Shown here one piece after another: positions 1 to 15,717 of a stretch of DNA of 64,000 nucleotides. Each line of letters opens with the position of its first letter. The first letter of the stretch is position 1. Origin of the DNA: Candidatus Omnitrophota bacterium (GTDB lineage Bacteria; Omnitrophota; Gorgyraeia; Duberdicusellales; 4484-171); assembly GCA_041652815.1 (NCBI GenBank), contig JBAZGN010000001.1:381855-445854 (forward strand), in the 5' to 3' direction. The notes under the pieces were generated by a model. The model searched no databases and was not told the DNA's origin. It saw nothing but the letters and a program-made list of their open reading frames with translations. The translations under genes and the position numbers were made by a program.

Positions 1-908
1 GAGTTTTTATCCAGGCAGAAAGCGAGTTGGCCGCTATAAATATGGTTTTTGGCGCAGCCGCAACAGGGGCGCGCGCGCTTACTAGTTCTTCCAGCCCCGG
101 CATATCGCTTAAACAGGAAGGTATCTCCTATATTGCAGGCGCCGGCTTGCCGGCGGTTATAATAAATGTTATGCGTGGCGGGCCTGGTCTGGGAAATATC
201 ACATCCAGCCAAAGTGATTATTTTCAGTCAACCCGCGGCGGCGGCCACGGCGATTATTTTACGCCGGTACTCGCCCCTTTTTCCGCCGAAGAGGCAGCCA
301 AATTAGTTTTACTTGGTTTTGATCTGGCGGATTATTACCGGACACCGGTTTTAATTTTAGCGGATGCAATCGTCGGCCAGGCGATGGAGGGGGTAGATTT
401 TCCTTCAAAAAGCGAATTTAAGAAAAAACTTCCTCCCAAAAAGTGGGCGCTTACAGGGGCAAAGGGCCGGCCGGCGAATATAGCAAAATCTTTTTTTCTT
501 AAGGAAGGAGCGCTCGAGATTCACAATGAAAAGCTTAGAGAAAAATGGGAAAAAATAAAACAGAATGAGCAAAGAAGTTCCACATATAAAACAGAAGATG
601 CAAAATATCTTATTATAGCTTATGGCTCGCAGGCACGTATTGCCTGGGAAACAGTTGATATGCTTCGAGAACAGAAAATAAAAGCGGGGTTATTTAGGCC
701 AATAAGCCTTTGGCCGTATCCAGATGCGGGCTTACAAAAGTGCGCCAAAAATATAAAAAAAATATTTGTAATTGAACAATCTCTCGGCCAAATGCTTGAT
801 GACGTAAAACTTGCATTGCCCGGCAAAGAGGTCAAATTTCTTGGCAAAACCGGCGGTGGAATTCCATCGGTTACGGAGATTATGAAATTTGTTAAAAGTA
901 CCACGTAA
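1..908 (+). CDS. 2-oxoacid:ferredoxin oxidoreductase alpha subunit (KorA/PorA-like), 5' partial at the window edge
   Basis: The ORF runs off the window start. The translation shows pyruvate/2-oxoglutarate:ferredoxin oxidoreductase alpha-subunit C-terminal motifs (GAAATGARAL...GLPAVIINVMRGGPGLGNI). It is followed by beta and gamma subunit genes. Confidence 0.8.
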   Translation, partial: VFIQAESELAAINMVFGAAATGARALTSSSSPGISLKQEGISYIAGAGLPAVIINVMRGGPGLGNITSSQSDYFQSTRGGGHGDYFTPVLAPFSAEEAAKLVLLGFDLADYYRTPVLILADAIVGQAMEGVDFPSKSEFKKKLPPKKWALTGAKGRPANIAKSFFLKEGALEIHNEKLREKWEKIKQNEQRSSTYKTEDAKYLIIAYGSQARIAWETVDMLREQKIKAGLFRPISLWPYPDAGLQKCAKNIKKIFVIEQSLGQMLDDVKLALPGKEVKFLGKTGGGIPSVTEIMKFVKSTT

Positions 909-1020
909 CAAGTAGCACGTTTTAAAAGACGTGTTACCTCCACTCCAAGTGGACTCGCCTAAATGTTTTTATATGGTGGCGAGGATACGTGTGACGTGCT
1001 ACGTATAATTGTTGCATAAC

Positions 1021-1758
1021 ATGAAGTCAAAATTTACAAGGCCAGTTTCGTTGAGGGATGCTGCAACCCATTATTGCTCCGGTTGCGGCCACGGAATTTT
1101 GCATCGATTAGTTGCCGAAGTAATCGATGAGCTTGGGCTTCGCGAAAAGACAATAGGAGTCGCTCCGGTTGGCTGCGCGGTTGTTGCATACGATTATTGG
1201 GATTTTGATGTTTGCGAGGCCGCGCATGGAAGGGCGCTTGCGGTTGCAACCGGAATAAAAAGATGCCGGCCAGAGAACGTTGTTTTTACGTATCAGGGCG
1301 ATGGAGACCTGGTTTCCATAGGAATGGCAGAAACTTTTCATACGGCAAATAGAGGCGAGAACGTTAGCTGTATTTTTGTAAATAATGCCTGCTATGGTAT
1401 GACTGGAGGGCAAATGGCGCCAACAACGCTTACCGGCCAAATAACAATAACTACACCTTGGGGGCGAAGCCCCAAAGCTAAAGAAGGTTGGCCTATAAAA
1501 TTTAGTGAAATTTTAGCCAGCCTCGAAGGGGTTAATTTTGCAGCGCGCGCCGCGGTTTCCAGCCCAAAAGAAATAATAAAAGCGCGCTCATACATCAAAA
1601 AAGCTTTTACAAATCAATTAGAAAATAAAGGTTTTTCGATAGTTGAAGTTTTAAGCCCCTGTCCTACGGTTTGGCAGAAAAAGCCACATGATGCAATGAA
1701 GTGGATAGATGAAGAAATGGTAAAAACGTTTCCTTTGGGAGTTATTAAATCAACATGA
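1021..1758 (+). CDS. 2-oxoacid:ferredoxin oxidoreductase beta subunit (TPP-binding)
   Basis: CSGCGHG TPP/Fe-S motif. The GDG...NN region is typical of KorB/PorB. The likely ATG start is 1021 (MKSKF); the ORF track uses an upstream TTG at 1009. Confidence 0.85.
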   Translation: MKSKFTRPVSLRDAATHYCSGCGHGILHRLVAEVIDELGLREKTIGVAPVGCAVVAYDYWDFDVCEAAHGRALAVATGIKRCRPENVVFTYQGDGDLVSIGMAETFHTANRGENVSCIFVNNACYGMTGGQMAPTTLTGQITITTPWGRSPKAKEGWPIKFSEILASLEGVNFAARAAVSSPKEIIKARSYIKKAFTNQLENKGFSIVEVLSPCPTVWQKKPHDAMKWIDEEMVKTFPLGVIKST

Positions 1759-1859
1759 ATAACGATTTAGATGCTAGATGCTTGATACTAGATGCTCGTA
1801 AAAAATAAAGACAACAAGTATCTAGGATCTAGCATCGAGAATCGATGCAAATTTAAATT

Positions 1860-2402
1860 ATGAAAGTAGATATACTACTATCCGGTGCAGGCGGGCAAGG
1901 TTTAATGAGCCTTGGCAAAGTAATTGCCGCCGCAGCAATTTTAGAAAATAAATTCACAACGTATTTCCCTTCTTATGGGCCAGAAGTAAGAGGGGGGACT
2001 GCGTATTGCTATGTAAAGATTTCAGATAAGCCTATTGCATCCCCACTCGTTGAAACGCCTGACGCGGCAATAATATTAAACCAGCAATCTCTGGAGAAAT
2101 TCAAAAATCGATTGGACAAAAATTGTACCTTAATATTGAATTCAGACCTCATACAAGACAAACCAAATTTATCAGCTAAAAAGATAATTTATCTTCCGTT
2201 AAGCAAGGTTGCCCTTAAATGCGGAGATATAAGATGTGCAAATGTAGTTGCTTTAGGCGCGCTTATCCAACTAAATCCGGATATTCTTAAGCAGGAAACA
2301 ATTACCGGGATTTTAAAAAAAATCTTTAGCGCCAATAGTTCTATGCTAAATATTAACATCAAAGCATTGTCTAGGGGCCACGAAGCAGCCAAGAATCATT
2401 AA
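1860..2402 (+). CDS. 2-oxoacid:ferredoxin oxidoreductase gamma subunit
   Basis: N-terminal ILLSGAGGQGL motif characteristic of POR/KOR gamma subunits. It sits in alpha-beta-gamma operon order with the two upstream ORFs. Confidence 0.8.
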   Translation: MKVDILLSGAGGQGLMSLGKVIAAAAILENKFTTYFPSYGPEVRGGTAYCYVKISDKPIASPLVETPDAAIILNQQSLEKFKNRLDKNCTLILNSDLIQDKPNLSAKKIIYLPLSKVALKCGDIRCANVVALGALIQLNPDILKQETITGILKKIFSANSSMLNINIKALSRGHEAAKNH

Positions 2403-2431
2403 ACTTATACAAGCTTCAAAATTATCCAAAA

Positions 2432-4378
2432 ATGCAAATGGGCAATAAAGCGGTTGAATTTTTAAAATTTCCGGTTTTTTTCATCTTTTTCGCATTTTTA
2501 GTTTTATGTGTTTCCTACAACTTAAATGATGCGGATTATTTTTTTCATACCAAGTGCGGAGAATATATCGTCACGCACAAAAGTATTCCCAAGGAGGACA
2601 TATTTTCTTTTTCCAAGGCAGGCAGCCCCTGGACTAACCATGAATGGTTTTATCAGGTTTTAATTTACTCGCTCTACAAAAATTGGGGAATTGATGGGTT
2701 TTTCTTTTTACGAACCGCGGTTTTTTGCCTAGCCTTCCTGATGCTTGCGATTTTTTCGCTAAAAACTGAGTGGATGTTTAGTTTCCCGCTTATTTTTTAT
2801 GGGCTTCAGGTATCTTTCGGGCGATTTACTTTGCGGCCGGATAATTTCAGTTTTCTCTTTTTTATTTTATTCTTGACGCCCTTTGTTTTTAAGAAAAAAT
2901 GGCTGCTTTTCTTTCTTCCATTAATTCAGGTTTTTTGGGTCAATATCCACGGATTTTTCTTTTTAGGGCCGGCTGTTTTACTTATCTATCTTTTACTGGG
3001 CAAGATAAAAAATAAAGAAACTGATATAGCTTTTTATAACACAGTTAAAATAATTTTTGTATTAACTTTTCTCGCCTGTTTTTTAACTCCCCAACCCATT
3101 CAAACAATTAAGTACCCTTTAACAATTTTAAAAGATATCGCATCCGGCAACCAAAAAATATTTTATAAATACATTCAAGAGCTCCAAAGCCCCTTTTCGG
3201 ATTTTTCGCATAACCGGATTTTCTTTAATTTCATACTATTTTCTTTAGTGTGCCTTGTTTTCTTGCATAAACTAAATTTTTTCTATGTAGGCCTGATAAT
3301 AGCCTTGGCTATATTTTCTTCAAACTCTCTGCGTAATATGTATTTTTTCGTTCCAGTTGCAATAGCTGTATTCGTTGACAGGTATTCGCAGATAAAAGAT
3401 TTTTTGTTGAAAAATATTTTGAAAGAAAAAGGCTTTAAATTGCTGAAATTATTCTTTATTGTACTGGCTATCGTTTTCTCTATAAGCATGTTCCAGCAAC
3501 TTAAAAGTTTCCCCGGCCGCGGACGGGCATTAATTACCCAAAATCAGGAAATCAACGTAAAATCCGCTTTTTTAAATATAGACCCTTATGAAAATCCCAA
3601 AGATATGCTTGATTTTATAGAAAAACATAAGCTCCCCGAGCGAATGTTTAACACATTTAACATTGGCGCCCATTTAATATTTAATTTTTTCCCGCAAAGA
3701 AAGGTTTTTATCGACGGACGGGCGGATTTCTACGGGCCAGAATTTTTTGATATGTATACACAAATCATTAGAGGCAATGAAGCTGCGTTAAAATATGCAA
3801 TAAAAAAATATGATTTGGACGGGTTTATCATGTGTTATTTTGCAGATACCCCTTCATCGAGCATAAAGTATATCAACGAAAAAGGCTTTAAATGCGTATA
3901 TTTTGGCTGGGATGGAATAATTTTTGTCAAAGATGATCTTATCGAGAAAGACCCTTCGTTAAAGGCTCTTATAGTTGACTTTGGTTCTTTGAATGTCGAG
4001 AAGCTTGATTTGATTAAAAATATCAAGCTCAAAATGCCTTATGTGAAAAGTTATCTCGATAAAGCAAAAGTTTTATACTTTTTGGGTTATTACGAAAAAA
4101 GTAAAGAATATTTAAATGAAATAATAAAGATTTATCCAAACAATGACGAAGCATATCTGCTTCTTGCGAAAATTTATTACAGACAGGGCAGTTACGACAA
4201 GGCTTTTATGTATTGCCGCAACAGTTTATTTTTTAATCCCTCTTTGGAAAGCGCACATACTCTTTTAGCAAAAATATATGTAAAAACCGCAAATTTAGAA
4301 GATGCACGCAGGGAAGCAGAAAAATATAAAGTAGATTTTAACAAATTCTTAGAGGAGACCAAAAATGAAAAGTACTGA
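2432..4378 (+). CDS. polytopic membrane protein with C-terminal TPR repeats, possibly a GT-C/TMTC-like glycosyltransferase
   Basis: About 10-12 predicted hydrophobic helices in the N-terminal 400 aa, then C-terminal TPR-like repeats (YEKSKEYLNEIIKIYPNNDEAYLLLAKIYYRQGSYDKA...). The family cannot be assigned from sequence alone. Confidence 0.5.
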   Translation: MQMGNKAVEFLKFPVFFIFFAFLVLCVSYNLNDADYFFHTKCGEYIVTHKSIPKEDIFSFSKAGSPWTNHEWFYQVLIYSLYKNWGIDGFFFLRTAVFCLAFLMLAIFSLKTEWMFSFPLIFYGLQVSFGRFTLRPDNFSFLFFILFLTPFVFKKKWLLFFLPLIQVFWVNIHGFFFLGPAVLLIYLLLGKIKNKETDIAFYNTVKIIFVLTFLACFLTPQPIQTIKYPLTILKDIASGNQKIFYKYIQELQSPFSDFSHNRIFFNFILFSLVCLVFLHKLNFFYVGLIIALAIFSSNSLRNMYFFVPVAIAVFVDRYSQIKDFLLKNILKEKGFKLLKLFFIVLAIVFSISMFQQLKSFPGRGRALITQNQEINVKSAFLNIDPYENPKDMLDFIEKHKLPERMFNTFNIGAHLIFNFFPQRKVFIDGRADFYGPEFFDMYTQIIRGNEAALKYAIKKYDLDGFIMCYFADTPSSSIKYINEKGFKCVYFGWDGIIFVKDDLIEKDPSLKALIVDFGSLNVEKLDLIKNIKLKMPYVKSYLDKAKVLYFLGYYEKSKEYLNEIIKIYPNNDEAYLLLAKIYYRQGSYDKAFMYCRNSLFFNPSLESAHTLLAKIYVKTANLEDARREAEKYKVDFNKFLEETKNEKY

Positions 4379-5675
4379 TAAGACGATAGTTCGATTTGCG
4401 CCGTCGCCTACCGGATATTTGCATATCGGCGGAGCGCGAACCTGCCTTTTTAACTGGCTTTACGCGCGCCATACAAAAGGAAAATTTATTCTGCGCATTG
4501 AAGATACTGACCTTGCGCGCTCAAAGCAGGAGTATCTTGATGAGATTTTAGAAAGCATAAAGTGGCTGGGTATGGACTTCGATGAAATTTATTATCAGTC
4601 AAAAAGGTTCGGCCTTTACCGTGATTATGCACAAAAACTTATTGATTGCGGCAGGGCTTACAAGAAAGACGACGCGGTATTTTTTAAATACGATTTTGCT
4701 AATGCTAATGTAGAAATTGATGATTTAATCCGCGGTAAAATTGTTTTTAACGAATTGCCCAAAGAGGAAGAGGTTATTATTAAAAAAGACGGCACCCCCA
4801 CTTATAATTTTAGCTGTTGTATAGACGACGCGCTTATGGAAATGTCGCTTATCATAAGAGGAGAAGACCATATTTCCAATACTCCAAAACAAATATTAAT
4901 GTATAAAGCCCTGGGGTTTTCCGTGCCGCAATTTGCGCACGTTCCCCTGATCCTATCCGAGGAAGGCGGAAGAATGTCCAAACGTTATGGTGCGACTTCC
5001 ATACGCGAATACAAAGAGGATGGTTATTTATCCTGCGCAATCGCCAACTACCTTTTACTTTTAAGCTGGTCTCCCGGAGGTAACCGTGAAATAATTACCC
5101 TTTCCGAAGCCAAAGATATTTTTGAGATAAAAAAAGTGAATAAAACTGCCGCGGCCTTTTCTATGGATAAATTAAACTGGATGAATTCAGAATATATAAA
5201 GAAAAAAAGCCCAGAGGAATACTTATCGCTGGTTGAAGAGTATTTGAAAGGCAAAAACTTTTTACCGGCTAATATTGATAAAGAATATGCTAAAAAGGTA
5301 TTCCTGCTTTTTAAAGACAGGCTTTCCAAGCTGTCGGATTTGTTTACCCGCGCCAGATTTTGTTTCTATGATGATTATACTTACGATGAAGATACCAAAG
5401 AAATCCTTGCGCGGAACTTATCCAAAGAAATAAATATACTGGCGGAAAAATTTTCTGCCCTCACAAATTTTAATCACGAAGAAGTAGAACAAGAATTCCG
5501 AAAAGTTGCAACCGATTTAGGCCTTAAAACGAAAGAGCTGGTTCATCCTGTGAGAGTTGCGCTTTCCGGAAAAAAAGTAGGCCCCAGCTTATTTGAAACC
5601 ATGGAGGTCCTTGGTAAAGAAAGAGTTGTAGCCATGTTAAAACGGCTGATTGATTATTGGGGTGCTAATACATAG
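4365..5675 (+). CDS. gltX: glutamyl-tRNA synthetase
   Basis: Class I HIGH motif (PSPTGYLHIGGAR) and KMSKR motif (RMSKRYG). The start overlaps the upstream stop by 14 nt. The protein is short for a GluRS (436 aa). Confidence 0.9.
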   Translation: MKSTDKTIVRFAPSPTGYLHIGGARTCLFNWLYARHTKGKFILRIEDTDLARSKQEYLDEILESIKWLGMDFDEIYYQSKRFGLYRDYAQKLIDCGRAYKKDDAVFFKYDFANANVEIDDLIRGKIVFNELPKEEEVIIKKDGTPTYNFSCCIDDALMEMSLIIRGEDHISNTPKQILMYKALGFSVPQFAHVPLILSEEGGRMSKRYGATSIREYKEDGYLSCAIANYLLLLSWSPGGNREIITLSEAKDIFEIKKVNKTAAAFSMDKLNWMNSEYIKKKSPEEYLSLVEEYLKGKNFLPANIDKEYAKKVFLLFKDRLSKLSDLFTRARFCFYDDYTYDEDTKEILARNLSKEINILAEKFSALTNFNHEEVEQEFRKVATDLGLKTKELVHPVRVALSGKKVGPSLFETMEVLGKERVVAMLKRLIDYWGANT

Positions 5676-5789
5676 AAAGCAATAAACATAGAAGCGGATA
5701 TCCGCGGATCTATACGCGGATAAACGCAAACGAGTTTGTGTGCGGAAATCCGCGTAAGTATCCGCGGCAATCCGCATCTATTCTTCCAT

Positions 5790-7475
5790 ATGAAACCAAA
5801 TTTTGTTACCGAAATTATTGATGAGCATAATAAAACCGGCCGTTTTAACGCGAGGGTGCATACGCGTTTTCCGCCCGAGCCAAACGGTTATTTGCATATT
5901 GGCCACGCCAAGGCGATTTATCTAAATTATTCTATAGCCAAGCAATACAACGGAAAATTTAATCTGCGTTTTGACGATACCAACCCTTGCAAAGAAGAAC
6001 AAGAATACGTTGATTCAATCATTGAGGATGTGAAATGGCTTGGCGCAGATTACCAAGGCCGCCTTTTCTACGCCTCGGATTATTTTGCGCAAATGTACGA
6101 ATACGCGGTAGCTTTGATTAAAAAAGGCAAAGCTTATGTCTGCGATTTAAATGCAGACCAAATCCGCACCTCGCGCGGCACTCTAACCGCGCCGGGAAAA
6201 GATAGCCCGTTTCGAAACCGCAGCGCAGAAGAAAACCTGGATTTATTCACGCGGATGCGTAAAGGTGAATTCCCTGATGGCTCACGGACTTTACGCGCAA
6301 AAATAGATATGGCGCATCCTAATTTTAATATGCGTGATCCAATAATGTACCGTATCCTACATTCCGCTCATCATCGTACCAAGGATAATTGGTGTATATA
6401 TCCCACGTATGACTGGGCGCATGGCTTGGAAGATTCCATAGAAAACATTACCCACTCGATATGCACGCTTGAATTTGAGAACCACCGGCCTTTATACGAT
6501 TGGTTTCTTGAGCAATTAGAAATATTTCATCCGCAGCAGATTGAGTTTGCCCGCTTAAATATTACCTATACGGTATTAAGCAAGCGAAAGCTTCTTGAAT
6601 TGGTTGAAGGTAATTTTGTCAGCGGCTGGGATGACCCGCGCATGCCAACTCTCGCAGGCCTTCGGCGCCGCGGTTACCCTAAAGAAGCACTGCATAATTT
6701 CTGCGAAGAGATAGGTGTCGCCAAATTTAACAGTACAATTGATGTAGGCGTGCTTGAGGAAGCGGTACGCGGCATCTTAAATAAAACCGCCGCGCGCGTA
6801 ATGGCAGTGCTTAGGCCGCTTAAAATTATCATCAAAAATTATCCTGAAGGTAAATTCGAAGAGCTTGAAGCGGTAAATAATCCGGAAGATGCTTCTATGG
6901 GTAGCCGGAAAATATTTTTCTCCCGCGAAATTTTCATTGAACAGGATGATTTTCGCGAAAATCCGCCCAAGGAATTTTTCCGTCTTTCCCCAGGTCGTGA
7001 AGTGCGGCTGCGTTATGCCTATTTTCTTAAATGCGAAGAAGTAATTAAGGATAAAGACGGCAATATTACGCAATTAATTTGCAGTTATGACCCGCAAACC
7101 CGCGGCGGAAACGCACCAGATGGACGCAAGGTAAAAGCAACAATTCATTGGGTGTCTTGCCACGATAGTTTCAATGCGCAGGTTAACCTTTACGACAGGC
7201 TTTTTAGTAGTCCAGACCCGGAAAATGTCGCTACCGGAGGTGATTTTAAATCCAACATAAACCAGCGTTCGTTGGAAACTATTAATGATGCAAAGCTTGA
7301 ACCATCGCTTAAAAAAGCGCAACCTAACCAACGTTATCAATTTGAACGCCTTGGCTATTTTTGCCTTGATACACGAAGCTGCGGGCAAAATTTGGTTTTT
7401 AACCGTATCTCTACCTTACGGGACACTTGGGCGAAAATAAAGCAGAAGCTTGGGAAACAGCAGATTAGTCAATAG
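5790..7475 (+). CDS. glnS: glutaminyl-tRNA synthetase
   Basis: [25 protein letters not shown] and a VLSKRK-type KMSKS region are typical of GlnRS. Start chosen at MKPNF (5790), inside the longer ORF that opens at 5736. Confidence 0.9.
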
Positions 7476-7570
7476 TCCATAGTCGATAGCCCATAGTAAA
7501 AACTGTGGACTATGCCCCCCCTGCGGGGAGGCTTCGCTCTCGACAGTCGATAGTCGTTAGTATAAATAAA
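7473..7570 (+). repeat. ~95-bp repeat element that begins at the stop codon of the upstream gene; copy 1 follows glnS
   Basis: Shares aTAGtccatagtcga(t/c)ag ... cccctg(c/t)ggggaggcttcgctctc with 15014-15112, which lies after proA. In both copies the host gene's TAG stop codon is the first triplet of the element. Confidence 0.6.
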
Positions 7571-7620
7571 AATAACCTTTTCTATGAAACTATCGACTAT
7601 CGGCTAACAACTGGTTTATG

Positions 7621-7749
7621 TGTTTAGGGTTTTATGTTTACCCCTCGCGCCTGTATATCGGGTAAATTTCTCGGCCTGCGGCCAGGAAATTTACCCGAAG
7701 TGCTTCGGGGTTAATTTTCCGCCCAAGGCGGAAAATTAAGGAGGTATAA
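7621..7749 (+). promoter_or_regulatory. structured 5' leader (three hairpins) ending in an AAGGAGG RBS, upstream of the small lipoprotein gene; copy L
   Basis: Inverted copy of 8354-8480. The hairpins are gggtaaatttc...gaaatttaccc, ccgaagtgcttcgg and ttttccgcccaaggcggaaaa. The last one abuts the RBS. Confidence 0.55.
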
Positions 7750-7932
7750 ATGCGTAAGGTATTTTTGCTGGTGTTAATTCTGGTGTTTGTTTCACTTCTT
7801 AATGGCTGCGAAACGGCAAAGAATACTGCATACGGTGTGCATCGTATTGCGGCGGGCGTAGCCGATGATGTTTATAATACCGGTAGGAATTTGAAAAGAG
7901 CAGACAACTGGATGGAAGAGAATACCTGGTAA
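7750..7932 (+). CDS. small lipoprotein, entericidin-like (signal peptide plus lipobox LNGC)
   Basis: Strong RBS (taaggaggtataaATG). N-terminal signal peptide with an L-N-G-C lipobox. The GCETAKNT..G motif resembles the entericidin EcnA/B family. Confidence 0.6.
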   Translation: MRKVFLLVLILVFVSLLNGCETAKNTAYGVHRIAAGVADDVYNTGRNLKRADNWMEENTW

Positions 7933-8047
7933 ATTTTTCAGGCCTCAAGCTCCAAATTTTTTAAATTTACAGCCTAAAGCCCGAATAAGATAATCGCTTA
8001 TCACGTTAGAAAAAAAATATCTAACGGAGTGAATTTTCTAACGGGAT

Positions 8048-8353
8048 TTATCTTTCACAATACTTGAGATGCTTGCCTTCCGGGTAATATTTTGCTCTTT
8101 TTTCGAAGTGCCCAGGCACCCAAACGTAACCCCTGCGATGGTTTACATGCTGCCAATAGCCTGGTATCCAGATCAAACGCCTGTCTCTCGAAAAATCCAC
8201 CTTAATATTTAAAGCCGATAACCCCACGCTTATTTTAGGCGTGGTTTTTATTGTTACTTTTTTGTCATACCGGTTTCTATCGCGGCTGTAAGCTGGACTA
8301 GCGCACATAATAATAATAAGCCCTGCAATTAAAGCTACAAATACTTTTTTCAT
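8048..8353 (-). CDS. small secreted protein of unknown function
   Basis: N-terminal signal peptide (MKKVFVALIAGLIIIMCASPAYS). It is preceded, on the minus strand, by the same structured leader and RBS as 7750-7932. Confidence 0.55.
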   Translation of the reverse strand: MKKVFVALIAGLIIIMCASPAYSRDRNRYDKKVTIKTTPKISVGLSALNIKVDFSRDRRLIWIPGYWQHVNHRRGYVWVPGHFEKRAKYYPEGKHLKYCER

Positions 8354-8480
8354 AAACCCTCCTTAATGAGCCCCGACTTACGTCGGGGCGAATTAACCCC
8401 GCAGCGCTTCGGTTAAATTTCCTGGTTGCAGGCACAGTCTCTTACCAGGAAATTTAACCGATATACAGGCGCAAGGGGTA
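8354..8480 (-). promoter_or_regulatory. structured 5' leader, copy R; inverted duplicate of 7621-7749
   Basis: Its reverse complement aligns with 7621-7749. Several differences are compensatory within the hairpin stems. Confidence 0.55.
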
Positions 8481-9089
8481 AATTACTATAAATTTTTTGG
8501 AATAAAGCACATTATTTTTCCAAGCTGAAGATACAGGAAAAATGTTGGCCTCATTTAATTAGACGTGGCATGCCTTTAAAAAGTCTACAATCTTGATTGG
8601 TTCAAGCAGGTAAAAGGGGTTAAAAATAAAGATTCCACGGCGTTTTACCGTGGAATCTTAAGAAGAAGAGGGGGCGATATTTTACCCTAAGCACTTAACT
8701 CAGGCATTCAGGACTTGATCGCCCCCTGGGGTTAGTTTAAAACAAAACCCCAAATGTTGGCCTGGATGCCGCATTGAGAAAGTTTAGCCTTAGGGCAATT
8801 AAGATATAGCACATCAGAAAATATTTTTCAAGGTGAAAGGGCAAGTTTATTCCCTTTACCATAATACCCTGCCTGCTCGCCCGCCGTAAGGCGGGCAGGG
8901 CGGGCGAGGCTGCGCCCGTGGATGAATGTGGAGTGGGATGTCGCCCCACGGGGCGTATTGCAAGGTACCACGGGAAGCCTTCGGCGTACCCGTGGGGCTC
9001 CAGTATAGCTGTTTTACATTGAAAACAAAAAAGCTTTTGATAATAAAAACATTAGAATTGGGAATTATTTATGGTAAAATAAAACTATA

Positions 9090-9338
9090 ATGCCAATTTC
9101 TTTAATTACCATCATATTGTTTGTACTTTTAGTTGCCCCAATAGTCATAATTCTTATATTGCAATCGGGCAATCCTTTCCGGGCGGAAAAAAATACCTCA
9201 AAAAGCCATCTAAAGAAAAACGAAACCTTGCCGGTAAATGTAAAAAACGGAAGATGGTGGTGCCCTTCCTGCGGAGATAGTAACCTCGAAGCTAAAGAAG
9301 ACTGCGGCAGCTGCGGGCAAAAGGTAAAAAAAGCCTAA
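9090..9338 (+). CDS. small membrane-anchored zinc-ribbon protein
   Basis: N-terminal TM helix. C-terminal CPSCGDS...CGSCGQK four-cysteine ribbon. Confidence 0.45.
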   Translation: MPISLITIILFVLLVAPIVIILILQSGNPFRAEKNTSKSHLKKNETLPVNVKNGRWWCPSCGDSNLEAKEDCGSCGQKVKKA

Positions 9339-9418
9339 AAATCCGCATTTTGTTGGTTAAATCAAACACAAATTCTCCTTGCCATAACCTTTTATAAATA
9401 TTACAATAATTTCCAACT

Positions 9419-9490
9419 TGCCCGGTAGTGTAATTGGCAACATGACAGACTCTGGATCTGTTGTTTCTGGTTCGAGTCCAGACCGGGCAG
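9419..9490 (+). tRNA. tRNA-Gln (anticodon CUG)
   Basis: Hand-folded cloverleaf. Acceptor tgcccgg/ccgggca with a U1:A72 pair and G73 discriminator. D stem gtgt/acat. Anticodon stem acaga/tctgt with loop ctCTGga. T arm tctgg-ttcgagt-ccaga. No encoded CCA. Confidence 0.8.
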
Positions 9491-9591
9491 TTCTGCTTCG
9501 CCCCTCACTAAGTGAAACGCTGGTAGGGCTTCGCAGAAACTATTCCTTAGAAGCTCTACTAGAGTTTAATATCTTAAGGAGCGAAGAAGAA

Positions 9592-9834
9592 ATGAATATA
9601 GTATATATCCTAACAAGTAAAAATTATCCGGAGCGATATTATATAGGTTTTACTCAAGATTTAGAACGCAGAATAAAAGATCATAACAGCGGTGATTCTC
9701 TATACACAAAACGCTATATGCCTTGGGAATTACAAACTTATATTACGTTTAAAAATAAACTCCAGGCAGAGGAATTTGAGAAATATCTTAAATCAGGTTC
9801 TGGATTTGCATTTTTAAAACGAAGATTTCTATAG
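9592..9834 (+). CDS. small GIY-YIG nuclease-domain protein (UPF0213-like)
   Basis: GIY-YIG motifs: VYILTS...YYIGFTQDLERRIKDHN. Start chosen at the internal Met of the longer ORF, because the upstream part of that ORF overlaps the tRNA. Flanked by inverted repeats gttctgcttcgcc / ggcgaagcagaac. Confidence 0.6.
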   Translation: MNIVYILTSKNYPERYYIGFTQDLERRIKDHNSGDSLYTKRYMPWELQTYITFKNKLQAEEFEKYLKSGSGFAFLKRRFL

Positions 9835-10163
9835 GCGAAGCAGAACTGTCCCTGCGAAGCCTGACCCGATGTTCTATTCTCTGAAGGGCGAAGCAGGACA
9901 GCCGTTCTTAATTTCAAATCAAAATTTTCGTACTTTTAGTGCTGATTTTTATGGAAGTAAATATGACCCAAACCGAAGTATTCGAATTTTTGAATAAAAA
10001 TCCCGTAATGTATTTAGCAACCTGTTGAATAATAGAAACTAATTTTTCACCCAAAGATCATATCAAGCTTTATTGATTAAATAAGAGAACAGAGAAGAAG
10101 TAAAATATTTTCTGTTATCTGTAAACTGTACTCTGTACTCTTTCCGAGCGAAGCGAGGAAAAC

Positions 10164-11033
10164 ATGCTAACCCAAGAATTAAAAACAAAAGTTTTAAAAG
10201 CCCAGAAAAATGAGCTTACCGAACATATAATTTATAAAAATCTCGCTTCGGTTATAAAAGATAAACAACAGAGCGAAATTTTAATCAGAATATCAAACGA
10301 AGAGTTGACGCATTATGAGTTTTTTAAAAGCATAACACAAGAAGAAGTTGCACCGGATAGTTTTAAGATTTTTCTTTATGTTTTTATTTCCCGCATCTTT
10401 GGCTTAAATTTTGGCTTAAAACTTATGGAAAATGGAGAAGACCTGGCGCAAGATGCCTATGATAGATTAAAAGAAATTTCACCGCAGATAGATGATATCA
10501 TCAAGGATGAAGAAAAACACGAAACAGAATTAATTGATTTAATCAACGAAGAACGCCTGAAATATGTAAGCTCAATAGTTTTAGGCTTAAATGACGCTTT
10601 GGTAGAATTAACCGGTGCTTTAGCTGGCTTTACTCTTGCCCTGCAAAATACAAAGCTTATTGCAATTATCGGTTTAATTACAGGAATTGCCGCTTCTATG
10701 TCTATGGCCGCTTCTGAATATTTATCTACCAAACACGAAGAAACCGATAAAACGCCCCTTAAAGCATGTATTTATACCGGCATTACCTATGTAGGCACAG
10801 TAATGTTTCTGATTTTTCCTTATCTTTTGTTCAAAAATATATTCGTTTGCCTCGGTATCACAGTTACGAACGCCCTTTTATTGATTCTTATTTTTACTTT
10901 CTATACATCAGTTGCCAAAGGGCTTAGCTTTAAGAAAAGATTTTTCGAGATGGCTAGTATCAGTTTAGGCATAGCAGTAATCAACTTTTTTATAGGCTTT
11001 GCAATAAGAAAAGTGTTTGGTGTTGAAGTTTAA
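10164..11033 (+). CDS. ferritin-like/VIT1 (CCC1) family membrane iron/manganese transporter (MbfA-like)
   Basis: N-terminal ferritin-like/rubrerythrin-like domain, then C-terminal VIT-family TM helices. Architecture typical of membrane-bound ferritin-like proteins. Confidence 0.65.
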   Translation: MLTQELKTKVLKAQKNELTEHIIYKNLASVIKDKQQSEILIRISNEELTHYEFFKSITQEEVAPDSFKIFLYVFISRIFGLNFGLKLMENGEDLAQDAYDRLKEISPQIDDIIKDEEKHETELIDLINEERLKYVSSIVLGLNDALVELTGALAGFTLALQNTKLIAIIGLITGIAASMSMAASEYLSTKHEETDKTPLKACIYTGITYVGTVMFLIFPYLLFKNIFVCLGITVTNALLLILIFTFYTSVAKGLSFKKRFFEMASISLGIAVINFFIGFAIRKVFGVEV

Positions 11034-11257
11034 GAAAGAGCTTTGAAAAACTGCATTGACACCGCAAAAACGCTAAAACCCCGCAAAGACGCAAAAAGAA
11101 ACACGAAAAGAAACCCTCTGGTTTTCGGTAAAATCTTTGTATTTCTCCTTTTGCGATTTTGTGGCATTTTTGCGGCTTTGCGGGGTAAATAATAGTTTTC
11201 AGAAGCCGGTAAAATAAATGCTTGACGTAGCATAATCAATATGTTAATATTTTGCCT

Positions 11258-11566
11258 ATGTTTGCCATAGTTGAAATAGGAAAAAAACAGTATTTCGTAG
11301 AAAAAGGGCACTCTTACAAGGTAGAGAGGCTTTCTCAAAAGACCGGCGAAATTACCTTTGATAAGGTTCTTCTTGTAGCCGGCGATGACAAGGTTAGCCT
11401 TGGTATTCCTTATGTTAAGGGTGCAAAGATAACAGCGCAGATAAACGGCGAAGAAAAGGCAAGTAAAGTTTTAAGCTATAAATACCGCAGGCGCAAGAAA
11501 TCACGCCGGATACGCGGCCACAGGCAAATTCATACCCTCCTTAAAATTTCTGATATCATAGTATAA
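11258..11566 (+). CDS. rplU: 50S ribosomal protein L21
   Basis: MFAIVEIGKKQYFVEKG... L21 signature. Preceded by a TTGACG-17-TTAATAT promoter-like sequence and a long imperfect hairpin leader. Confidence 0.9.
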   Translation: MFAIVEIGKKQYFVEKGHSYKVERLSQKTGEITFDKVLLVAGDDKVSLGIPYVKGAKITAQINGEEKASKVLSYKYRRRKKSRRIRGHRQIHTLLKISDIIV

Positions 11567-11725
11567 ATAACCAATAACCAAGATACAAATTCCAAACAAA
11601 TTCCAATATTCAATGACCAATGATCAAACGGTTTATTATTTTTTGTTTGGTTATTGAATATTGATTATTGGCCATTGTTTGGTTATTGTATCTTGGAGCT
11701 TGGTTATTTATAATAGAAATAACAT

Positions 11726-12646
11726 ATGATTATCGACGAAGTAAAAGTCTATTTCAAAGCAGGTTGTGGCGGAGAAGGCTCGTTTTCTTCTATGAAGTAT
11801 TCTGCCCGCCGCGTAATCGGCGGCGGCGGCGACGGCGGCCGCGGCGGTGACGTTATTTTAAAAGTAAGCCCTCATCTTTCAGATCTGATTAAATTCAACG
11901 AAAGAAGAAAATTTGTTGCCGAAGACGGAGAAAAAGGCAAAGAGTATAACAAGAAAGGAAAACACGGGGAAAGCCTTTTTGTTTATGTCCCTAAAGGCAC
12001 GCAAATCGTTGATTTAGATGGAAATCTCATTATTGATTTAAACGAAGATAGTCAGGAATATTTAATTTGCAAGGGTGGTGCCGGCGGAAAAGGAAACTTC
12101 AAAAAACTATACAGCCTGCCAGCCCAAAGCGGAGAGGAAAAAGAAGCAATTCTTTATTACTGTATTCCCAACGATGTCGCCATAGCCGGATTTGCAAATA
12201 GCGGCAAAACTTCTCTCTTTAATAAGCTTACCGGAAAATCTTACGCAGTAGCAGATTATCCTTTTACCACCAGGGCCTGCATCTGGGCACCCGTAGAGTT
12301 TGAATCCAGGAAATTCACAATAATGGATACCCCTCCTATCAAGAAAAATTCAAAAAATATTTACCTAGAAAATAGTTTTCTTAAACACCTATTCCGTAGT
12401 AAAATAATCTTACTTGTCAGCGATAATCACTGTGAGTTTAAAAGCGAATTTTCCGCTCTCAAGAAGGAAATTTCCTCATTCGATAAACTTCTAACCAGCG
12501 GTAAAAAAATTTTTTACTTATTGAATAAAGTTGATAAAATAGATAGAAATACCATTAATTTAAAAGGAGTTATACCTGTTTCAACAATTGACGATACAGG
12601 TATTGAGGAATTGAAGAAAAAGCTAATAAAACATTTTGTAAAATAA
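11726..12646 (+). CDS. obg: Obg-family GTPase with a divergent switch II and no C-terminal extension
   Basis: Glycine-rich N-terminal Obg fold (GGGGDGGRGGDV, GGAGGKGN). G1 is GFANSGKTS and G4 is NKVD. The canonical DxxG is replaced by DTPP. The protein is 306 aa and ends after the G domain. Confidence 0.8.
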   Translation: MIIDEVKVYFKAGCGGEGSFSSMKYSARRVIGGGGDGGRGGDVILKVSPHLSDLIKFNERRKFVAEDGEKGKEYNKKGKHGESLFVYVPKGTQIVDLDGNLIIDLNEDSQEYLICKGGAGGKGNFKKLYSLPAQSGEEKEAILYYCIPNDVAIAGFANSGKTSLFNKLTGKSYAVADYPFTTRACIWAPVEFESRKFTIMDTPPIKKNSKNIYLENSFLKHLFRSKIILLVSDNHCEFKSEFSALKKEISSFDKLLTSGKKIFYLLNKVDKIDRNTINLKGVIPVSTIDDTGIEELKKKLIKHFVK

Positions 12647-12653
12647 CTGAAAA

Positions 12654-13697
12654 ATGAAAAAAATCGTCGTAAAAGTCGGTAGCAGCATAATTGCCCCATC
12701 TGGAAAGCTGAATAATTCTTTGGTTGAGGCGCTTGTAAAAGATGTTTTAGAAGCGCAAAAACTTGGGTTTAAGGTTATTCTCGTAAGTAGCGGCGCAATT
12801 GCTTGCGGCGCAGATAAGCTGGAGCTTCGCAAAAAGCCAAACGATACAGCTCATCTTATGGCGCTTGCATCCCTTGGCCAAATTATACTTATGGATGCAT
12901 ATACCGCTCAATTTAAAAAGCATACCAGGGCCTGCGCGCAGATTCTTCTTACCTGGGATGACTTTGATAACCGTAAGCGCTTTTTAAACGCACGAAACAC
13001 GATAAACAAGCTCCTTTCGCTGGATATTATTCCGATAATAAATGAAAATGATGCCATATCTTTCGATGAGATAAAATTCGGCGATAACGACAGGCTTTCG
13101 GCTCTGGTAGGGGATTTGGTTCGTGCGCAGACTTTAATTATATTATCAGACGTTCCCGGGCTTATGGATAAAGATAAAATAATAGATACAGTTACCAAAA
13201 TTGATGAAAAAATTTCCGCATTAGTGAAAACCAAAGGTAAAGCCTTTACGAGCGGTGGTATGTCTACGAAACTCGAGGCAGGAAAAATTGCCACTTGCTC
13301 AGGCATAAAGATGATTATTGCTTCCGGCCACACTGAAAGAGTTATCTCGCGCATTGTAGGCGGAGAAAATTTAGGCACAACATTTTTGGCGCAAGACGCC
13401 GTGTGCAAGGCCCGCAAGAGATGGATTGCTTTTAGTAAAAAAATAAAAGGTAAAATTTATGTAGATACTGGCGCGAAAGAAGCAGTATTGAACCACGGCA
13501 AAAGCCTTCTTTGCGTAGGCATCATCAGGACAGAGCAGGATTTTAAAAGAGGGGATTCTGTCGAGGTTTTAGACGAAAACGAAAATATCCTGGGTTGTGG
13601 TATTGTTAATTATTCTTCGGATGAATTAGCTAACTGCCGCAGCAAGAAATTCGAAAAAGAAGTTATACACAGGAATAACTTTGTAAAAAAACAATAA
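12654..13697 (+). CDS. proB: glutamate 5-kinase with C-terminal PUA domain
   Basis: N-terminal VVKVGSS motif of the amino-acid kinase family. C-terminal PUA-like region. Sits in the conserved obg-proB-proA neighbourhood. Confidence 0.9.
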   Translation: MKKIVVKVGSSIIAPSGKLNNSLVEALVKDVLEAQKLGFKVILVSSGAIACGADKLELRKKPNDTAHLMALASLGQIILMDAYTAQFKKHTRACAQILLTWDDFDNRKRFLNARNTINKLLSLDIIPIINENDAISFDEIKFGDNDRLSALVGDLVRAQTLIILSDVPGLMDKDKIIDTVTKIDEKISALVKTKGKAFTSGGMSTKLEAGKIATCSGIKMIIASGHTERVISRIVGGENLGTTFLAQDAVCKARKRWIAFSKKIKGKIYVDTGAKEAVLNHGKSLLCVGIIRTEQDFKRGDSVEVLDENENILGCGIVNYSSDELANCRSKKFEKEVIHRNNFVKKQ

Positions 13698-13765
13698 CCA
13701 GCTATCAGTCATCAGCTATCAGCTTTCGGCTGAAGACTGACGACTGAAGGCTGAAAGCTTTATCT

Positions 13766-15016
13766 ATGCAAAAATACGTAAAAAATCTAGTCAAAAAAGC
13801 GAAAGAGGCCAGCTATAAGCTATCGCAGCTCGATAGCGAAAAAAAGAACGCCATACTATTTCAAATGGCTGATTATCTCATCGCGAATAAGGATTTTATT
13901 CTTAAAGAAAACGCGAAAGATGTTAAAACCGCCATAAAAAATAAATTACAGCAAAGTTTCATCGACCGCCTTACGCTTTCCGATAAACGTTTAAATGAAA
14001 TGAGCAACTCTCTAAAAGAAATTGCAAAGCTGCCCGACCCCGTTGGAAAAGTTATCGGCGAGTGGCAACGGCCAAACGGCCTTAAGCTTAAAAAAGTAAG
14101 AATTCCTATCGGAGTTATCCTCGTAATTTTCGAAGCGCGGCCCAATGTAACGAGCGACTGCGTGGGGCTTCTTTTTAAATCTTCTAACGTTGCGATACTT
14201 CGCGGCGGAGGAGATTCTATAAATTCAAATAGAGCCATAGGAAAAATTCTTAAAAAAGCAATACAATCCAGCGGCATAAACTTCGAGCCTTTTTTTATCA
14301 TCGAGAAAACAGAACATAAAATAGTTGATTTGTTACTTTCCGAAAATGAATACATAGACCTGGTTATTCCAAGAGGCGGAGAAGCTCTCATACGTAAAGT
14401 CGTAGAAAGTTCCAAAATTCCAGTAATAAAACATTATAAAGGAGTATGCCATATATTCGTAGATAAGGCATTAGACATAGGCAAAGCCTTACGCATTTGT
14501 GTAAATGCCAAAGTGCAAAGGCCTTCAGTGTGCAATGCCGTTGAAAAAATTCTTGTGCATCAAGATGTGGCAAATAATTTCCTTCCTTTGTTAAAAAAAG
14601 AACTTGATAAATATAAAGTGGAAATAAGAGGGGATAGCAAAACCTGCCGGATATTAAAAGGCATAAAAAAAGCCAAAGATGCGGATTGGTTTGCTGAATA
14701 CCTCGATTTGATAGTTACGATAAAAGTTGTGGCAAATATCGATAGTGCAATTTCTCATATAAATTTTTACGGCTCTCACCACACAGACGCAATTGTCACG
14801 AAAGATTTAAGCAAAGCGGCAAAATTTACAAAAGAAGTTGATTCTGCCTGCTGTTTCGTAAATATTTCAACCCGTTTTAGCGACGGCTTTCAGTTTGGCC
14901 TAGGCGCTGAGATAGGCATATCTACCGATAAAATCCACGCCCGCGGCCCAATGGGGCTTACGGAGCTTACTACTTACAAATGGGTGGTTGAAGGGGACGG
15001 GCAGGTAAGGGAATAG
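13766..15016 (+). CDS. proA: gamma-glutamyl phosphate reductase
   Basis: Aldehyde dehydrogenase-like fold with a catalytic Cys context (PSVCNAVE). Follows proB. Confidence 0.9.
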   Translation: MQKYVKNLVKKAKEASYKLSQLDSEKKNAILFQMADYLIANKDFILKENAKDVKTAIKNKLQQSFIDRLTLSDKRLNEMSNSLKEIAKLPDPVGKVIGEWQRPNGLKLKKVRIPIGVILVIFEARPNVTSDCVGLLFKSSNVAILRGGGDSINSNRAIGKILKKAIQSSGINFEPFFIIEKTEHKIVDLLLSENEYIDLVIPRGGEALIRKVVESSKIPVIKHYKGVCHIFVDKALDIGKALRICVNAKVQRPSVCNAVEKILVHQDVANNFLPLLKKELDKYKVEIRGDSKTCRILKGIKKAKDADWFAEYLDLIVTIKVVANIDSAISHINFYGSHHTDAIVTKDLSKAAKFTKEVDSACCFVNISTRFSDGFQFGLGAEIGISTDKIHARGPMGLTELTTYKWVVEGDGQVRE

Positions 15017-15112
15017 TCCATAGTCGACAGTCGATAGTTCACAGATTTAAAACTATGGATTATGGTCCCCTGTGGGGAGGCTTCGCTCTCTATGGACTGT
15101 GGACTAAATTAT
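15014..15112 (+). repeat. second copy of the stop-codon-containing ~95-bp repeat element; follows proA
   Basis: See 7473-7570. The proA TAG stop codon is the first triplet of the element. Confidence 0.6.
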
Positions 15113-15117
15113 TATGA

Positions 15118-15160
15118 AAATAGGAATTTTAGGCGGAACGTTTAACCCGCCGCTTAGAGA
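15118..15160 (+). other. 43-bp perfect duplicate of the nadD 5' end (ATG plus 13 codons), left border of an insertion
   Basis: atgaaaataggaattttaggcggaacgtttaacccgccgc is identical to 15853-15895. Confidence 0.85.
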
Positions 15161-15171
15161 GTGGAAGAAAG

Positions 15172-15717
15172 ATGGATTTTAAAACAGTATTAAAAAAATT
15201 GATAGATATATTTGAAAAAAACAAGATAGATTATGCACTTATTGGCGGGTTCGCCCTGGGTGTGTATGGAGTAGTCAGGGCTACTAATGATTTAGACTTT
15301 CTTATCGACAAGAAATACAATACATTTCTTAAGAAAATGATGAAACAGAATATGTATGATATTATTTATGAATCAGAAAATGTTATACAATTTGAGCACC
15401 CTGCTGCGATATTCGGCAGTATTGATTTTTTGTATGCGTTTAGGAAACCTTCTTTAGAAATGCTAAAAAGAGCAGTTGAGAAAAATTTATTCGAAAAAAC
15501 CATAGCCATAAAAGTGCTTTTGCCGGAGGACATAATTGGTTTAAAAGTACAGGCATTTGTAAATCGCCCGGAACGCAAAGTTTTCGAATTAGAGGACATT
15601 AAAAGTTTGATAACGGCAAACTTAAGTGAGTTGGATTGGGAAATCATAAAAAAACATTTTGCTTTATTTAATTTAGCTACATTATATGAAGAATTGAAAA
15701 ATAATTATGGTAAATAA
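15172..15717 (+). CDS. nucleotidyltransferase-fold protein (minimal pol-beta type NTase; Lnu/ANT/AbiEii-like), inserted gene
   Basis: GG...G...ATNDLDFLID is a G[SG]-x(n)-DhD nucleotidyltransferase signature. The gene lies between the two copies of the nadD 5' end. Confidence 0.55.
   Translation: MDFKTVLKKLIDIFEKNKIDYALIGGFALGVYGVVRATNDLDFLIDKKYNTFLKKMMKQNMYDIIYESENVIQFEHPAAIFGSIDFLYAFRKPSLEMLKRAVEKNLFEKTIAIKVLLPEDIIGLKVQAFVNRPERKVFELEDIKSLITANLSELDWEIIKKHFALFNLATLYEELKNNYGK

Follow-up and report, generated by a model that had tools for sequence, protein, structure and literature searches.

TAGTCNA heptamer-repeat hairpins with a nested core at the stop codons of Omnitrophota genes, and their core-less counterparts in other phyla

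The genes glnS and proA of a Candidatus Omnitrophota bacterium end in TAG codons that open the same repeat element, which lies in a 64,000-nucleotide stretch of the genome (GenBank assembly GCA_041652815.1, contig JBAZGN010000001.1, positions 381,855 to 445,854 of the forward strand; the whole stretch, numbered from its first letter, is hereafter the window). In this study, we found that what an initial annotation had described as a 95-bp element is a composite of a hairpin built of heptamer repeats, with the unit TAGTCNA, and a GC-rich core nested within it. At least three sites in its Omnitrophota host now carry copies of the composite, and open reading frames (ORFs) end at the heptamer array or run a few codons into it. 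Comparisons with relatives show gain, loss, and replacement of the element at orthologous sites and arms that vary in 7-nt steps, and similar hairpins without the core are present in at least five bacterial phyla. [quoted passage not shown] The composite build, the TAG in every 7-nt unit, and the presence of this hairpin type genome-wide and in several phyla all go beyond the initial annotation.

By Pfam and homologues, the ORF at 5736/5790-7475 is glnS, encoding glutaminyl-tRNA synthetase (GlnRS), and the ORF at 13766-15016 encodes ProA, gamma-glutamyl-phosphate reductase. The sequence was as first described: in both genes the TAG stop codon is the opening triplet of TAGTCCATAGTCGA, the start of a shared block that leads to a conserved 24-mer core, CCCCTG(C/T)GGGGAGGCTTCGCTCTC, on the + strand at 7518-7541 and 15067-15090. 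These two are the only matches to the core with up to 3 mismatches in the window, and 100 shuffles gave an expectation of 0. Between the TAG and the end of the core (7473-7541 versus 15014-15090), 60 of 78 aligned columns are identical; copies 1 and 2 then diverge, and because the copies differ downstream of the core, the shared block ends with it and the size of ~95 bp given earlier is approximate.

The palindrome has arms of tandem heptamers with degenerate units, (TAGTCNA)n on one side and (TNGACTA)n on the other, and the right arm holds the core, a nested 24-27-nt GC-rich double mini-hairpin. In copy 1, the left arm at 7466..7497 (+ strand; TAGTCAA TAGTCCA TAGTCGA TAGCCCA TAGT) includes the last two sense codons of glnS (AGT CAA) followed by the glnS stop at 7473-7475. 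It is followed on the same strand by an A-rich loop (AAAAA) and an inner right arm, CTGTGGACTATG, that pairs with the left arm (7498..7514), by the core at 7515..7541 (CCCC-TGC-GGGG, then GAGGC-TTC-GC(T)CTC, with GCGAAGC on the opposite strand), and, next to the core, by another hairpin with this type of heptamer at 7542..7608 (GACAGTCGATAGTCGTTAG, a loop, and CTATCGACTATCGGCTAAC), which stands in place of the simple outer right arm of the other copies. Copy 2, likewise on the + strand, has its left arm at 15014..15044 (TAGTCCA TAGTCGA CAGTCGA TAGTTCA CAG, in which 15014-15016 is the TAG that ends proA), the loop ATTTAAAA and inner right arm CTATGGATTATGG at 15045..15065, the core at 15066..15090 (T, then CCCCTGTGGGGAGGCTTCGCTCTC, with TATGG on both flanks), and an outer right arm, TATGGACTGTGGACTA, at 15091..15106 that is the reverse complement of a TAGTCCAYAGTCCATA-type left end; 3' of this arm come AATTATT and the ATG of a duplicated nadD 5' end. 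The units that follow the A-rich loop and complement the left arm are CTRTGGA and similar. Head-to-tail degenerate heptamers, the unit structure of STRR and simple sequence repeat (SSR) arrays, were found at 7464-7496 and 10 other places.

The window is identical to part of contig JALOCC010000004.1 of assembly GCA_023227945.1, in which we read 9 kb further upstream, and our results for the host genome refer to ~75 kb. A copy count against stop codons, which had been proposed as a check, yielded a third copy in this sequence, on the same contig ~3.7 kb upstream of the window (L086 5278-5355, window -3702..-3625). Copy 3 is inverted and lies directly after the RNase Y gene (rny), whose stop codon is the first TAG of the element; the first TAG is thus the stop of the host gene in 3/3 copies. 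It aligns with copy 2 except for a 14-nt (two-unit) indel in the left arm and a few substitutions, so that the number of units changes in whole steps, and the lone core substitution among the copies, in the TGY loop, separates copy 2 from copies 1 and 3. The copies are 78-136 nt long, below the ~300 bp to which MITEs extend, hold no ORF, and are dispersed at unrelated genes, and copies 2 and 3 have terminal inverted repeats (TIRs), TAGTCCAYAGTC...GACTRTRGACTA. The predicted folds reach -52.8 kcal/mol for copy 1 (z -7.0), -36.5 kcal/mol for copy 2 (z -3.4), and -31.7 kcal/mol for copy 3. A TATGG stands on either side of the core in copies 2 and 3, and deletion of the core with one TATGG leaves a perfect heptamer register, CTGTGGA CTATGGA CTGTAGA CTA. 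Because the register is restored in this way, we read the core as a later, secondary insertion into a heptamer hairpin that already existed.

The link between element and stop codon follows from the unit itself. The TAGs of copy 1, at 7466, 7473, 7480, 7487, and 7494, fall in glnS frames 2, 0, 1, 2, and 0; as 7 = 1 mod 3, any three units carry TAG in all three frames, and since the ends are inverted (TAGTC...GACTA), the palindrome closes all frames also for genes that enter from the other side. Who supplies the stop differs between the copies. In five relatives, glnS has no element and ends in AAGCTTAAGAAG-TAA or AAGAGG-TAG (...KLKK* or ...KLKR*), whereas the window gene ends AAGCTT GGG AAA CAG CAG ATT AGT CAA TAG (...KLGKQQISQ*), which makes the GlnRS tail 5 residues longer, with the final codons inside the array. 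The old glnS stop was plausibly lost by a TAG->CAG change, and the empty site in all five relatives indicates that the element was gained recently. ProA, by comparison, is 416 amino acids long in nearly all orthologues, which makes its stop position native, and a TAG is kept at the same position in three relatives with 86-93% ProA identity. Each of these has a hairpin after the stop: a homologous TAGTCC hairpin without the core in L093 and other heptamer flavors in L091 and L090. RNase Y ends in ...YAK* in all three relatives examined. At proA and rny, the native stop coincides with the first unit. The suggested comparison of orthologous gene ends therefore came out divided, with an altered end for glnS and an unchanged one for proA, and the statement that the element supplies the stop stands for glnS, not for proA, whose TAG and C terminus are ancestral, or rny, whose end is native. 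A 9/13 similarity upstream of the two stops (GCAGATTAGTCAA versus GCAGGTAAGGGAA), considered as a further part of the element, was rejected for proA because this stretch encodes the conserved native ...GQVRE end.

The coupling to gene ends extends to hairpins that lack the core. A search of metagenomes with the pattern TAGTCNAYAGTC N{10,40} GACTRTNGACTA found core-less TAGTCNA hairpins at 119 or more loci; the matches listed have GC fractions between 0.28 and 0.70, and their arrays, often longer than the matched pattern, have arms of 2-15 units (mean 4.5 over the 119 matches listed). Exact-protein look-up at 9 sampled loci assigned hosts to Omnitrophota, Bacteroidota (Runella limosa, Sediminibacterium, and Chitinophagaceae), Planctomycetota (Gemmataceae), Cyanobacteria (Hassallia, Nostocales), and Myxococcota (Polyangia). 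At 70 of the 119 loci listed, the array or the 6 nt before it holds the end of an ORF of 80 or more amino acids, on one strand or on both, compared with 11.3 +/- 2.9 for random positions in the same loci; some long ORFs at high-GC loci are spurious and inflate these counts somewhat, and the random control is drawn from the same loci. At 19 of the 119 loci listed, ORFs end on both strands, with convergent genes meeting at one hairpin. The stop used is TAG in 71 of 89 cases at the loci listed, at array positions 0, 7, 14, and 21. When ORFs of at least 100 amino acids that end between -200 and +35 nt are considered among the matches listed, the ends for 126 arms lie inside the array in 53, 1-6 nt before it in 19, 7-20 nt before it in 24, and farther away in 30. 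The six such ORFs that we checked by Pfam are ordinary genes (NAD synthase, SdhA, a histidine kinase, IMPase, an AMP-ligase, and a Leu/Phe-tRNA transferase), with domains that stop just before tails such as VDSR*, VDGR*, and VYSP*.

The host genome has at least eight hairpin flavors, the TAGTCC family being one of them; others include CAGCTATCAG, CACAGATGA, ACGTGTTAC, GGTTACGAA, CAGAGAA/TTCTCTG, TAGATGC, and AATAACCAA. Several of them reshape gene ends in the same manner. The ymdB gene reads KQD|TDDHR* into a CACAGATGA-type element where a relative has KQDA*. The porA and porB genes share an ATGA overlap in relatives L082 and L083; their spacer in the window (~903-1020) holds a heptamer hairpin of the ACGTG type, 112 nt long and with GC-rich inserts, which gives new terminal residues to both proteins, including a ...STT* end encoded by the element. 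At rplU-obg, the rplU stop now consists of TA and the first A of an AATAACC-type element, with a clean TA duplication relative to the empty site in L093. Across spacers of at least 40 nt, the first stretch of up to 110 nt after the stop folds with z<-2 in 30 of 46 (median z -3.65), versus 1 of 36 coding controls, and in minimum free energy folds the structured domain mostly begins at a distance of 0-11 nt, counted from the stop codon's first base. At lag 7, the match frequency is 0.263 for coding and 0.333 for intergenic DNA, and it reaches 0.377 over the 45 nt that follow stops; the lag-14 value is 0.367, and autocorrelation peaks at these two lags are seen in intergenic DNA alone. Between species, flavors are gained, lost, and swapped at orthologous spacers, and one flavor can be found at different loci in different species. 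GC-rich mini-hairpins in the loops or arms are likewise present in some strains and absent in others.

Parts of this picture recall known repeats. STRR sequences are tandem heptanucleotides with consensus units, reportedly found in Calothrix PCC 7601 by Mazel and colleagues in 1990. Like the TAGTCNA arrays, they are degenerate, intergenic, of many flavors per genome, and of no known function; one TAGTCNA match is in a Nostocales genome (Hassallia), and a CCCCAGT-type array lies after rho in this Omnitrophota lineage. That array, a heptamer hairpin with the unit CCCCAGT/GTCCCAG, was seen 3' of rho in a 95%-identical strain, to the right of the window (L087 10171-10270), and it shares its unit with the cyanobacterial STRR1 repeats. 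Unlike STRR sequences, the TAGTCNA arrays are the inverted arms of one hairpin, abut or contain a stop codon, carry a nested core, and also occur in Omnitrophota, Bacteroidota, Planctomycetota, and Myxococcota. Of heptanucleotides in Calothrix, three are cited in Rehm et al. (PMC4692102).

Two other heptamer repeats offer parallels. TAACTGA direct repeats are known from Beggiatoaceae, Cyanobacteria, and Bacteroidetes (MacGregor 2015, PMC4679880); they stop all three frames, overlap ORFs only at their ends, and overlap upstream stops in 13 cases (PMC4679880). A stop-bearing heptamer unit, patchy spread across phyla, and indels in 7-nt steps are common to them and to the TAGTCNA arrays, whereas most TAACTGA arrays are direct repeats placed just upstream of start codons, with no predicted structure (PMC4679880). 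TAGTCNA differs in its unit and in forming inverted pairs, and thereby long hairpins, at gene 3' ends, with both strands usable. The GGGAATC and GGGGAYT repeats of Xanthomonas and Nostoc are partly arranged in inverted pairs, as TAGTCNA is, and GGGAATC repeats lie up to 50 bp from stop codons, some overlapping them (Rehm et al. 2015, PMC4692102); these authors state that detailed literature on heptameric repeats was not available in 2015. In contrast to TAGTCNA, such repeats are G-rich and G-quadruplex-forming and have neither stop codons nor a regular hairpin architecture.

Among dispersed elements, the Correia/NEMIS sequences of Neisseria and the RUP elements of Streptococcus pneumoniae (linked to IS630-Spn1) share TIRs, the lack of an ORF, and high copy number with the TAGTCNA hairpins (PMC2229807). 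These MITEs are 80-160 bp long, flanked by TA, and closed by stops in all frames, and each forms one long hairpin (PMC2229807). They differ in having fixed TIRs tied to known insertion sequences (ISs); the TAGTCNA arms are slippage-prone arrays, many unrelated flavors coexist, and no cognate transposase was found in ~75 kb of host genome and the 119 loci listed. The short extragenic palindromes of the REP/BIME/REPIN type also lie at gene ends, in nested or clustered arrangements (PMC3116915), but REPs are GC-rich palindromes of 20-40 nt with no heptamer periodicity, and they are mobilized by RAYT (Y1) transposases, for which the window holds no ORF (Y1_Tnp-like). A RAYT-like gene near the metagenome match L209 was rejected as a candidate partner, since it is flanked by its own unrelated REPs. 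The region at L209 3990-4720 is a classical REPtron, with a RAYT-like Y1 transposase gene between GGTGTCCTACACC...GGTGTAGGACACC palindromes, and the TAGTCNA hairpin, 1.8 kb away, is unrelated to it.

The nested core has its nearest counterpart in the small dispersed repeats (SDRs) of Nostoc, said to have been described by Elhai and colleagues in 2008 as hairpin-forming mini-elements of 21-27 nt nested in tandem heptamer repeats. The 24-27-nt core resembles them in sitting in a heptamer arm between short duplications (TATGG...TATGG). It differs in having no sequence similarity to them, in its phylum, and in the fact that its three copies always lie inside the same composite. The SDR article of 2008 (Genome Res 18:1484) is cited in PMC3116915. 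The present hairpins differ from the known systems in their regular inverted-pair build, which both strands can use, in having TAGTCNA as the unit, in a coupling to stop codons that has been quantified, in their occurrence in five phyla including Omnitrophota, and in the nested core.

We propose that the elements spread as DNA to new gene ends without an enzyme of their own. Insertion may be targeted to TA, as in one sister family, which would fit the flanks of copies 2 and 3, and after arrival the arrays would breathe in 7-nt steps. Because the element closes every frame from both sides, it would be tolerated at stop codons, where it does no harm and is in effect selected for position, and host genes could lose their own stop and terminate in the element. 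The core would be an SDR-like secondary insertion that marks one recent lineage of copies. In the transcript, a strong predicted hairpin would sit directly on the stop codon, and by analogy with REP and Correia sequences, roles of this RNA hairpin in 3'-end protection, RNase III processing, or ribosome pausing at the stop are plausible.

Several observations weigh against this proposal or narrow it. No transposase was found by Pfam among 28 ORFs of the window, or in the ~75 kb of host genome, and copy number and orientation were counted in these ~75 kb. Neither the 185,579 species genomes of GTDB nor the metagenome collection of JGI contained the exact 21-mer of the core; on these counts the core is private to this species. 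The proA TAG, and with it the C terminus of ProA, is older than the present element, which restricts the supply of a stop, taken literally, to cases of the glnS type. A TA duplication was demonstrated for the sister AATAACC family alone. In the metagenomes, 53% of the outermost units in the matches listed start with TAG, and array boundaries are often not TA; a special role of TA at array boundaries, considered as a general rule, found no support in the 119 matches listed. At the RNA level, G.U-type and A.C-type stem mismatches number 36 and 51 in the host genome (p=0.13) and 60 and 40 in the ORF-oriented metagenome hairpins (p=0.057, non-significant). These trends point in opposite directions, and selection for RNA pairing was not detectable. 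Core and TIR scans with mismatches across all relatives fetched found copies in the window genome alone, and other assemblies of the species (L001 and L214) are identical at the element, with no polymorphism.

A classical MITE with TIRs, mobilized in trans by a transposase of the IS630/Tc1-mariner type with insertion at and duplication of TA, is a possible if doubtful alternative to the heptamer-repeat family that we favor. Since G would be the first base of the element proper whichever way round it lies, a stop codon TAA or TAG that received the element in its TA would become TAG again. Copies 2 and 3 are indeed bounded by TA[GTCC...GGAC]TA, and their flanks agree with a TA duplication: removal of the element and one TA gives GAA TAA ATTATT ATG at proA-nadD and AAA TAA AAT at rny. 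The unambiguous TA duplication of the sister family at rplU-obg points the same way, and the known bacterial MITEs RUP and Correia use TA targets (PMC2229807). The initial annotation, too, had suggested a mobile MITE-like module, which dispersal, the lack of coding capacity, the palindrome, a MITE-like size, and the empty glnS site in 5 relatives partly support; an autonomous IS or transposase with matching TIRs, the partner of a MITE, was not found in the window. Nor does one recur near the metagenome hairpins: all-versus-all clustering of 1,474 ORFs from the 119 listed loci gave no shared neighbor family. At least 8 arm flavors in one small genome would require many cognate transposases, the outermost TAG of metagenome units is far from constant, and heptamer slippage in the arms blurs any fixed TIR. 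The glnS site, the sole empty site for the TAGTCC family, has blurred junctions, and the proA site of a relative with 86% ProA identity already had the TAG and a homologous hairpin, with a right flank of TG rather than TA.

We consider it rather unlikely that the hairpin is instead a selected RNA element set on the stop codon, with the core as a protein- or RNA-binding module and a role as a factor-dependent or U-tract-less terminator, an RNase III site, a block to 3' exonucleases, or a ribosome-pausing signal. Hairpins persist at rny-ymdB, proA-nadD, nadD-pgm, and plsC-rpsA even though their flavor is replaced between species, and the strong folding (z -3.4 to -7.0) and the structured spacers (30/46) would suit such a role. 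There is precedent in the RNase III cleavage of Correia hairpins (PMC2229807) and in E. coli REPs within 15 nt of a stop, which are described, in a secondary account, as stalling ribosomes and affecting translation of the upstream gene (Liang 2015, via PMC12306157). The weak G.U excess in the ORF-oriented metagenome hairpins might be added, but it is absent from the host genome. Many orthologous spacers lack any hairpin, and the core is found in both orientations. No U-tract, as expected of an intrinsic terminator, was present at the elements, and terminator-like sites in 1-20000 numbered 19 against an expected 22.8 +/- 5.7, none of them at the elements; the terminator reading of the initial annotation is not supported. 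Rfam searches returned tRNA-Gln only in the window at the gathering threshold and no match in 7400-7760 at E<=1, and the three copies, being near-identical, gave no covariation.

An origin of the hairpins in situ, with the stop region as the seed for slippage during replication and for template switching, and with gene conversion between arrays instead of transposition as the cause of their resemblance, is in our view unlikely. Slippage would explain the differences in unit number between copies and among metagenome arms and the flavors kept at orthologous sites with a change in length, as at fer4-porA (30 nt versus 102 nt). Heptanucleotide repeats are, moreover, reported at second hand to be the most over-represented long SSRs in prokaryotes, with polymerase slippage proposed as the cause (Mrazek 2007, via PMC4679880). 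In contrast, comparisons at glnS, porA-porB, and rplU-obg show either no array or the whole element, complete with its loop, core, and both arms; the copies share the order of unit variants, the loops, and the nested core; and identical 36-nt palindromes stand in differing contexts at the metagenome loci L154 and L210.

The reading of the element as a terminator/ribosome-binding site (RBS) cassette, or as a dedicated gene for a 3' untranslated region-derived small RNA (sRNA), defined by the GGAGG of the core, is highly improbable: the core does contain GGGGAGG, stands between co-oriented genes, and has a parallel in a different Shine-Dalgarno-containing hairpin module, CCGARCGAAGYGAGG, 5-8 nt before starts elsewhere in the genome, but where an RBS would lie 5-10 nt before a start on the sense strand, the next start is 35 nt away from the GGAGG in copy 2 (a nadD-type ATG) and ~220 nt away in copy 1, the GGAGG of copy 3 is on the opposite strand, as this copy is inverted relative to its host gene, a promoter/terminator scan found nothing above chance and nothing flanking the core, Rfam has no match, and a core absent from all relatives and both public collections cannot be needed for expression of these conserved genes.

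The heptamer-repeat family bears on an old question, since heptanucleotide repeats have been known in cyanobacteria since 1990 and we still know of no accepted function for them. Inverted TAGTCNA arrays show countable behavior: in at least five phyla they lie on gene ends and act as the stop codon. In housekeeping proteins they rewrite the final 1-7 residues, which yields tails like ...VDSR*, ...VHSP*, and ...ISQ*, and elements of this kind can part genes that formerly overlapped. For annotation, this means that C-terminal tails and stop positions can be element-derived and that the hairpins break contigs, and there is a bearing on operon evolution in streamlined genomes such as those of Omnitrophota. 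Cultivable hosts (Runella, Sediminibacterium, and Nostocales) make the effects of a hairpin on the stop, in termination, mRNA stability, and translation, testable. We speculate, with little confidence, that the TAGTCNA arrays and their sister flavors are a gene-end module that spreads horizontally across phyla and is kept for its usefulness, in contrast to an inert repeat, and that the nested core is the first SDR-like nano-mobile element outside cyanobacteria. If so, a bidirectional, frame-independent stop would be fused to a hairpin that forms once the terminating ribosome leaves, coupling termination to protection or processing of the mRNA 3' end or to insulation between cistrons, and the nested core would target heptamer hairpins.

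Other features of the window lie close to the element. The motif GCGAAGC, present in the core, corresponds to d(GCGAAGC), an unusually stable DNA mini-hairpin. With its complement GCTTCGC it occurs 21 times in the whole window (8.1 +/- 2.8 expected), and 10 of the 21 sites fall in the intergenic 11% (sites such as 7531, 9495, 9528, 9854, 9888, 10148, 15080, 21626, 49812, and 63320). It is also seen at the apex of a TAGTCNA hairpin in L144, a locus that shares its sample with the Gemmataceae-assigned L104. The related motif CCGARCRAAGYGAGG, a GC-GAA-GC mini-hairpin with a Shine-Dalgarno-like GAGG on its 3' side, stands 5-8 nt before starts at 10140-10154 and 63313-63327, at ~6267-6281 of L086, and upstream of pilZ in L082 and L083. 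Three species retain it before pilZ, including cases in which the heptamer element farther upstream is a different one or is missing. It is a structured RBS module.

Next to glnS, inverted repeats at 7637-7716 and 8391-8482 (56 nt at 80% complementarity and 34 nt at 94%), built of several GC-rich mini-hairpins, bracket a conserved 60-amino-acid lipoprotein-like ORF and a 101-amino-acid ORF on the - strand, with a much shorter spacer in relatives. Beyond them, ~200 nt of non-coding sequence at ~8625-8850 (- strand) show 89-91% BLAST identity among Omnitrophota relatives, above that of the flanking genes. This region has a promoter-like TTGAAA-N17-TGTGCTATATC, an intrinsic-terminator-like hairpin with a T-run at its end (8659-8629), a 5' GCCCUAAG able to pair with a 3' CUUAGGGU, and no Rfam match at E<=1, and it is a candidate for a novel sRNA gene. 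Directly 3' of tRNA-Gln, a GIY-YIG nuclease-family ORF (9603-9845) has flanks at 9492-9540 and 9850-9910 that are rich in GCTTCGC/GCGAAGC and inverted; relative L091 has a GIY-YIG gene at a similar place, and the ORF may be a mobile or homing-type cassette.

Two further inserts lie at housekeeping genes. Downstream of copy 2, an exact 41-nt direct repeat (15113-15153 and 15852-15892) duplicates the first nadD codons and brackets an insert of ~700 nt with an ORF (15172-15717) for an AbiEii/DUF2204-like nucleotidyltransferase; in L091 and L093, proA is directly followed by nadD. The insert looks like a small integrative cassette that regenerates the 5' end of its target gene. Likewise, a 63-nt direct repeat (92% identical; 21506-21568 and 23211-23273) copies the tyrS 3' end and brackets a Fic/DOC-domain gene (ORF 21814-23148), preceded by three 61-nt tandem repeats at 21643-21825; here, too, a toxin-like cassette, the second in the window, has been inserted where a housekeeping gene ends, and that end is duplicated. 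Finally, a 78-nt repeat (86% identical; 23370-23447 and 39305-39382) holds TTGACA-N17-TGTGCTATATC; it probably represents a strong promoter that was duplicated and now lies upstream of two large clusters of genes.

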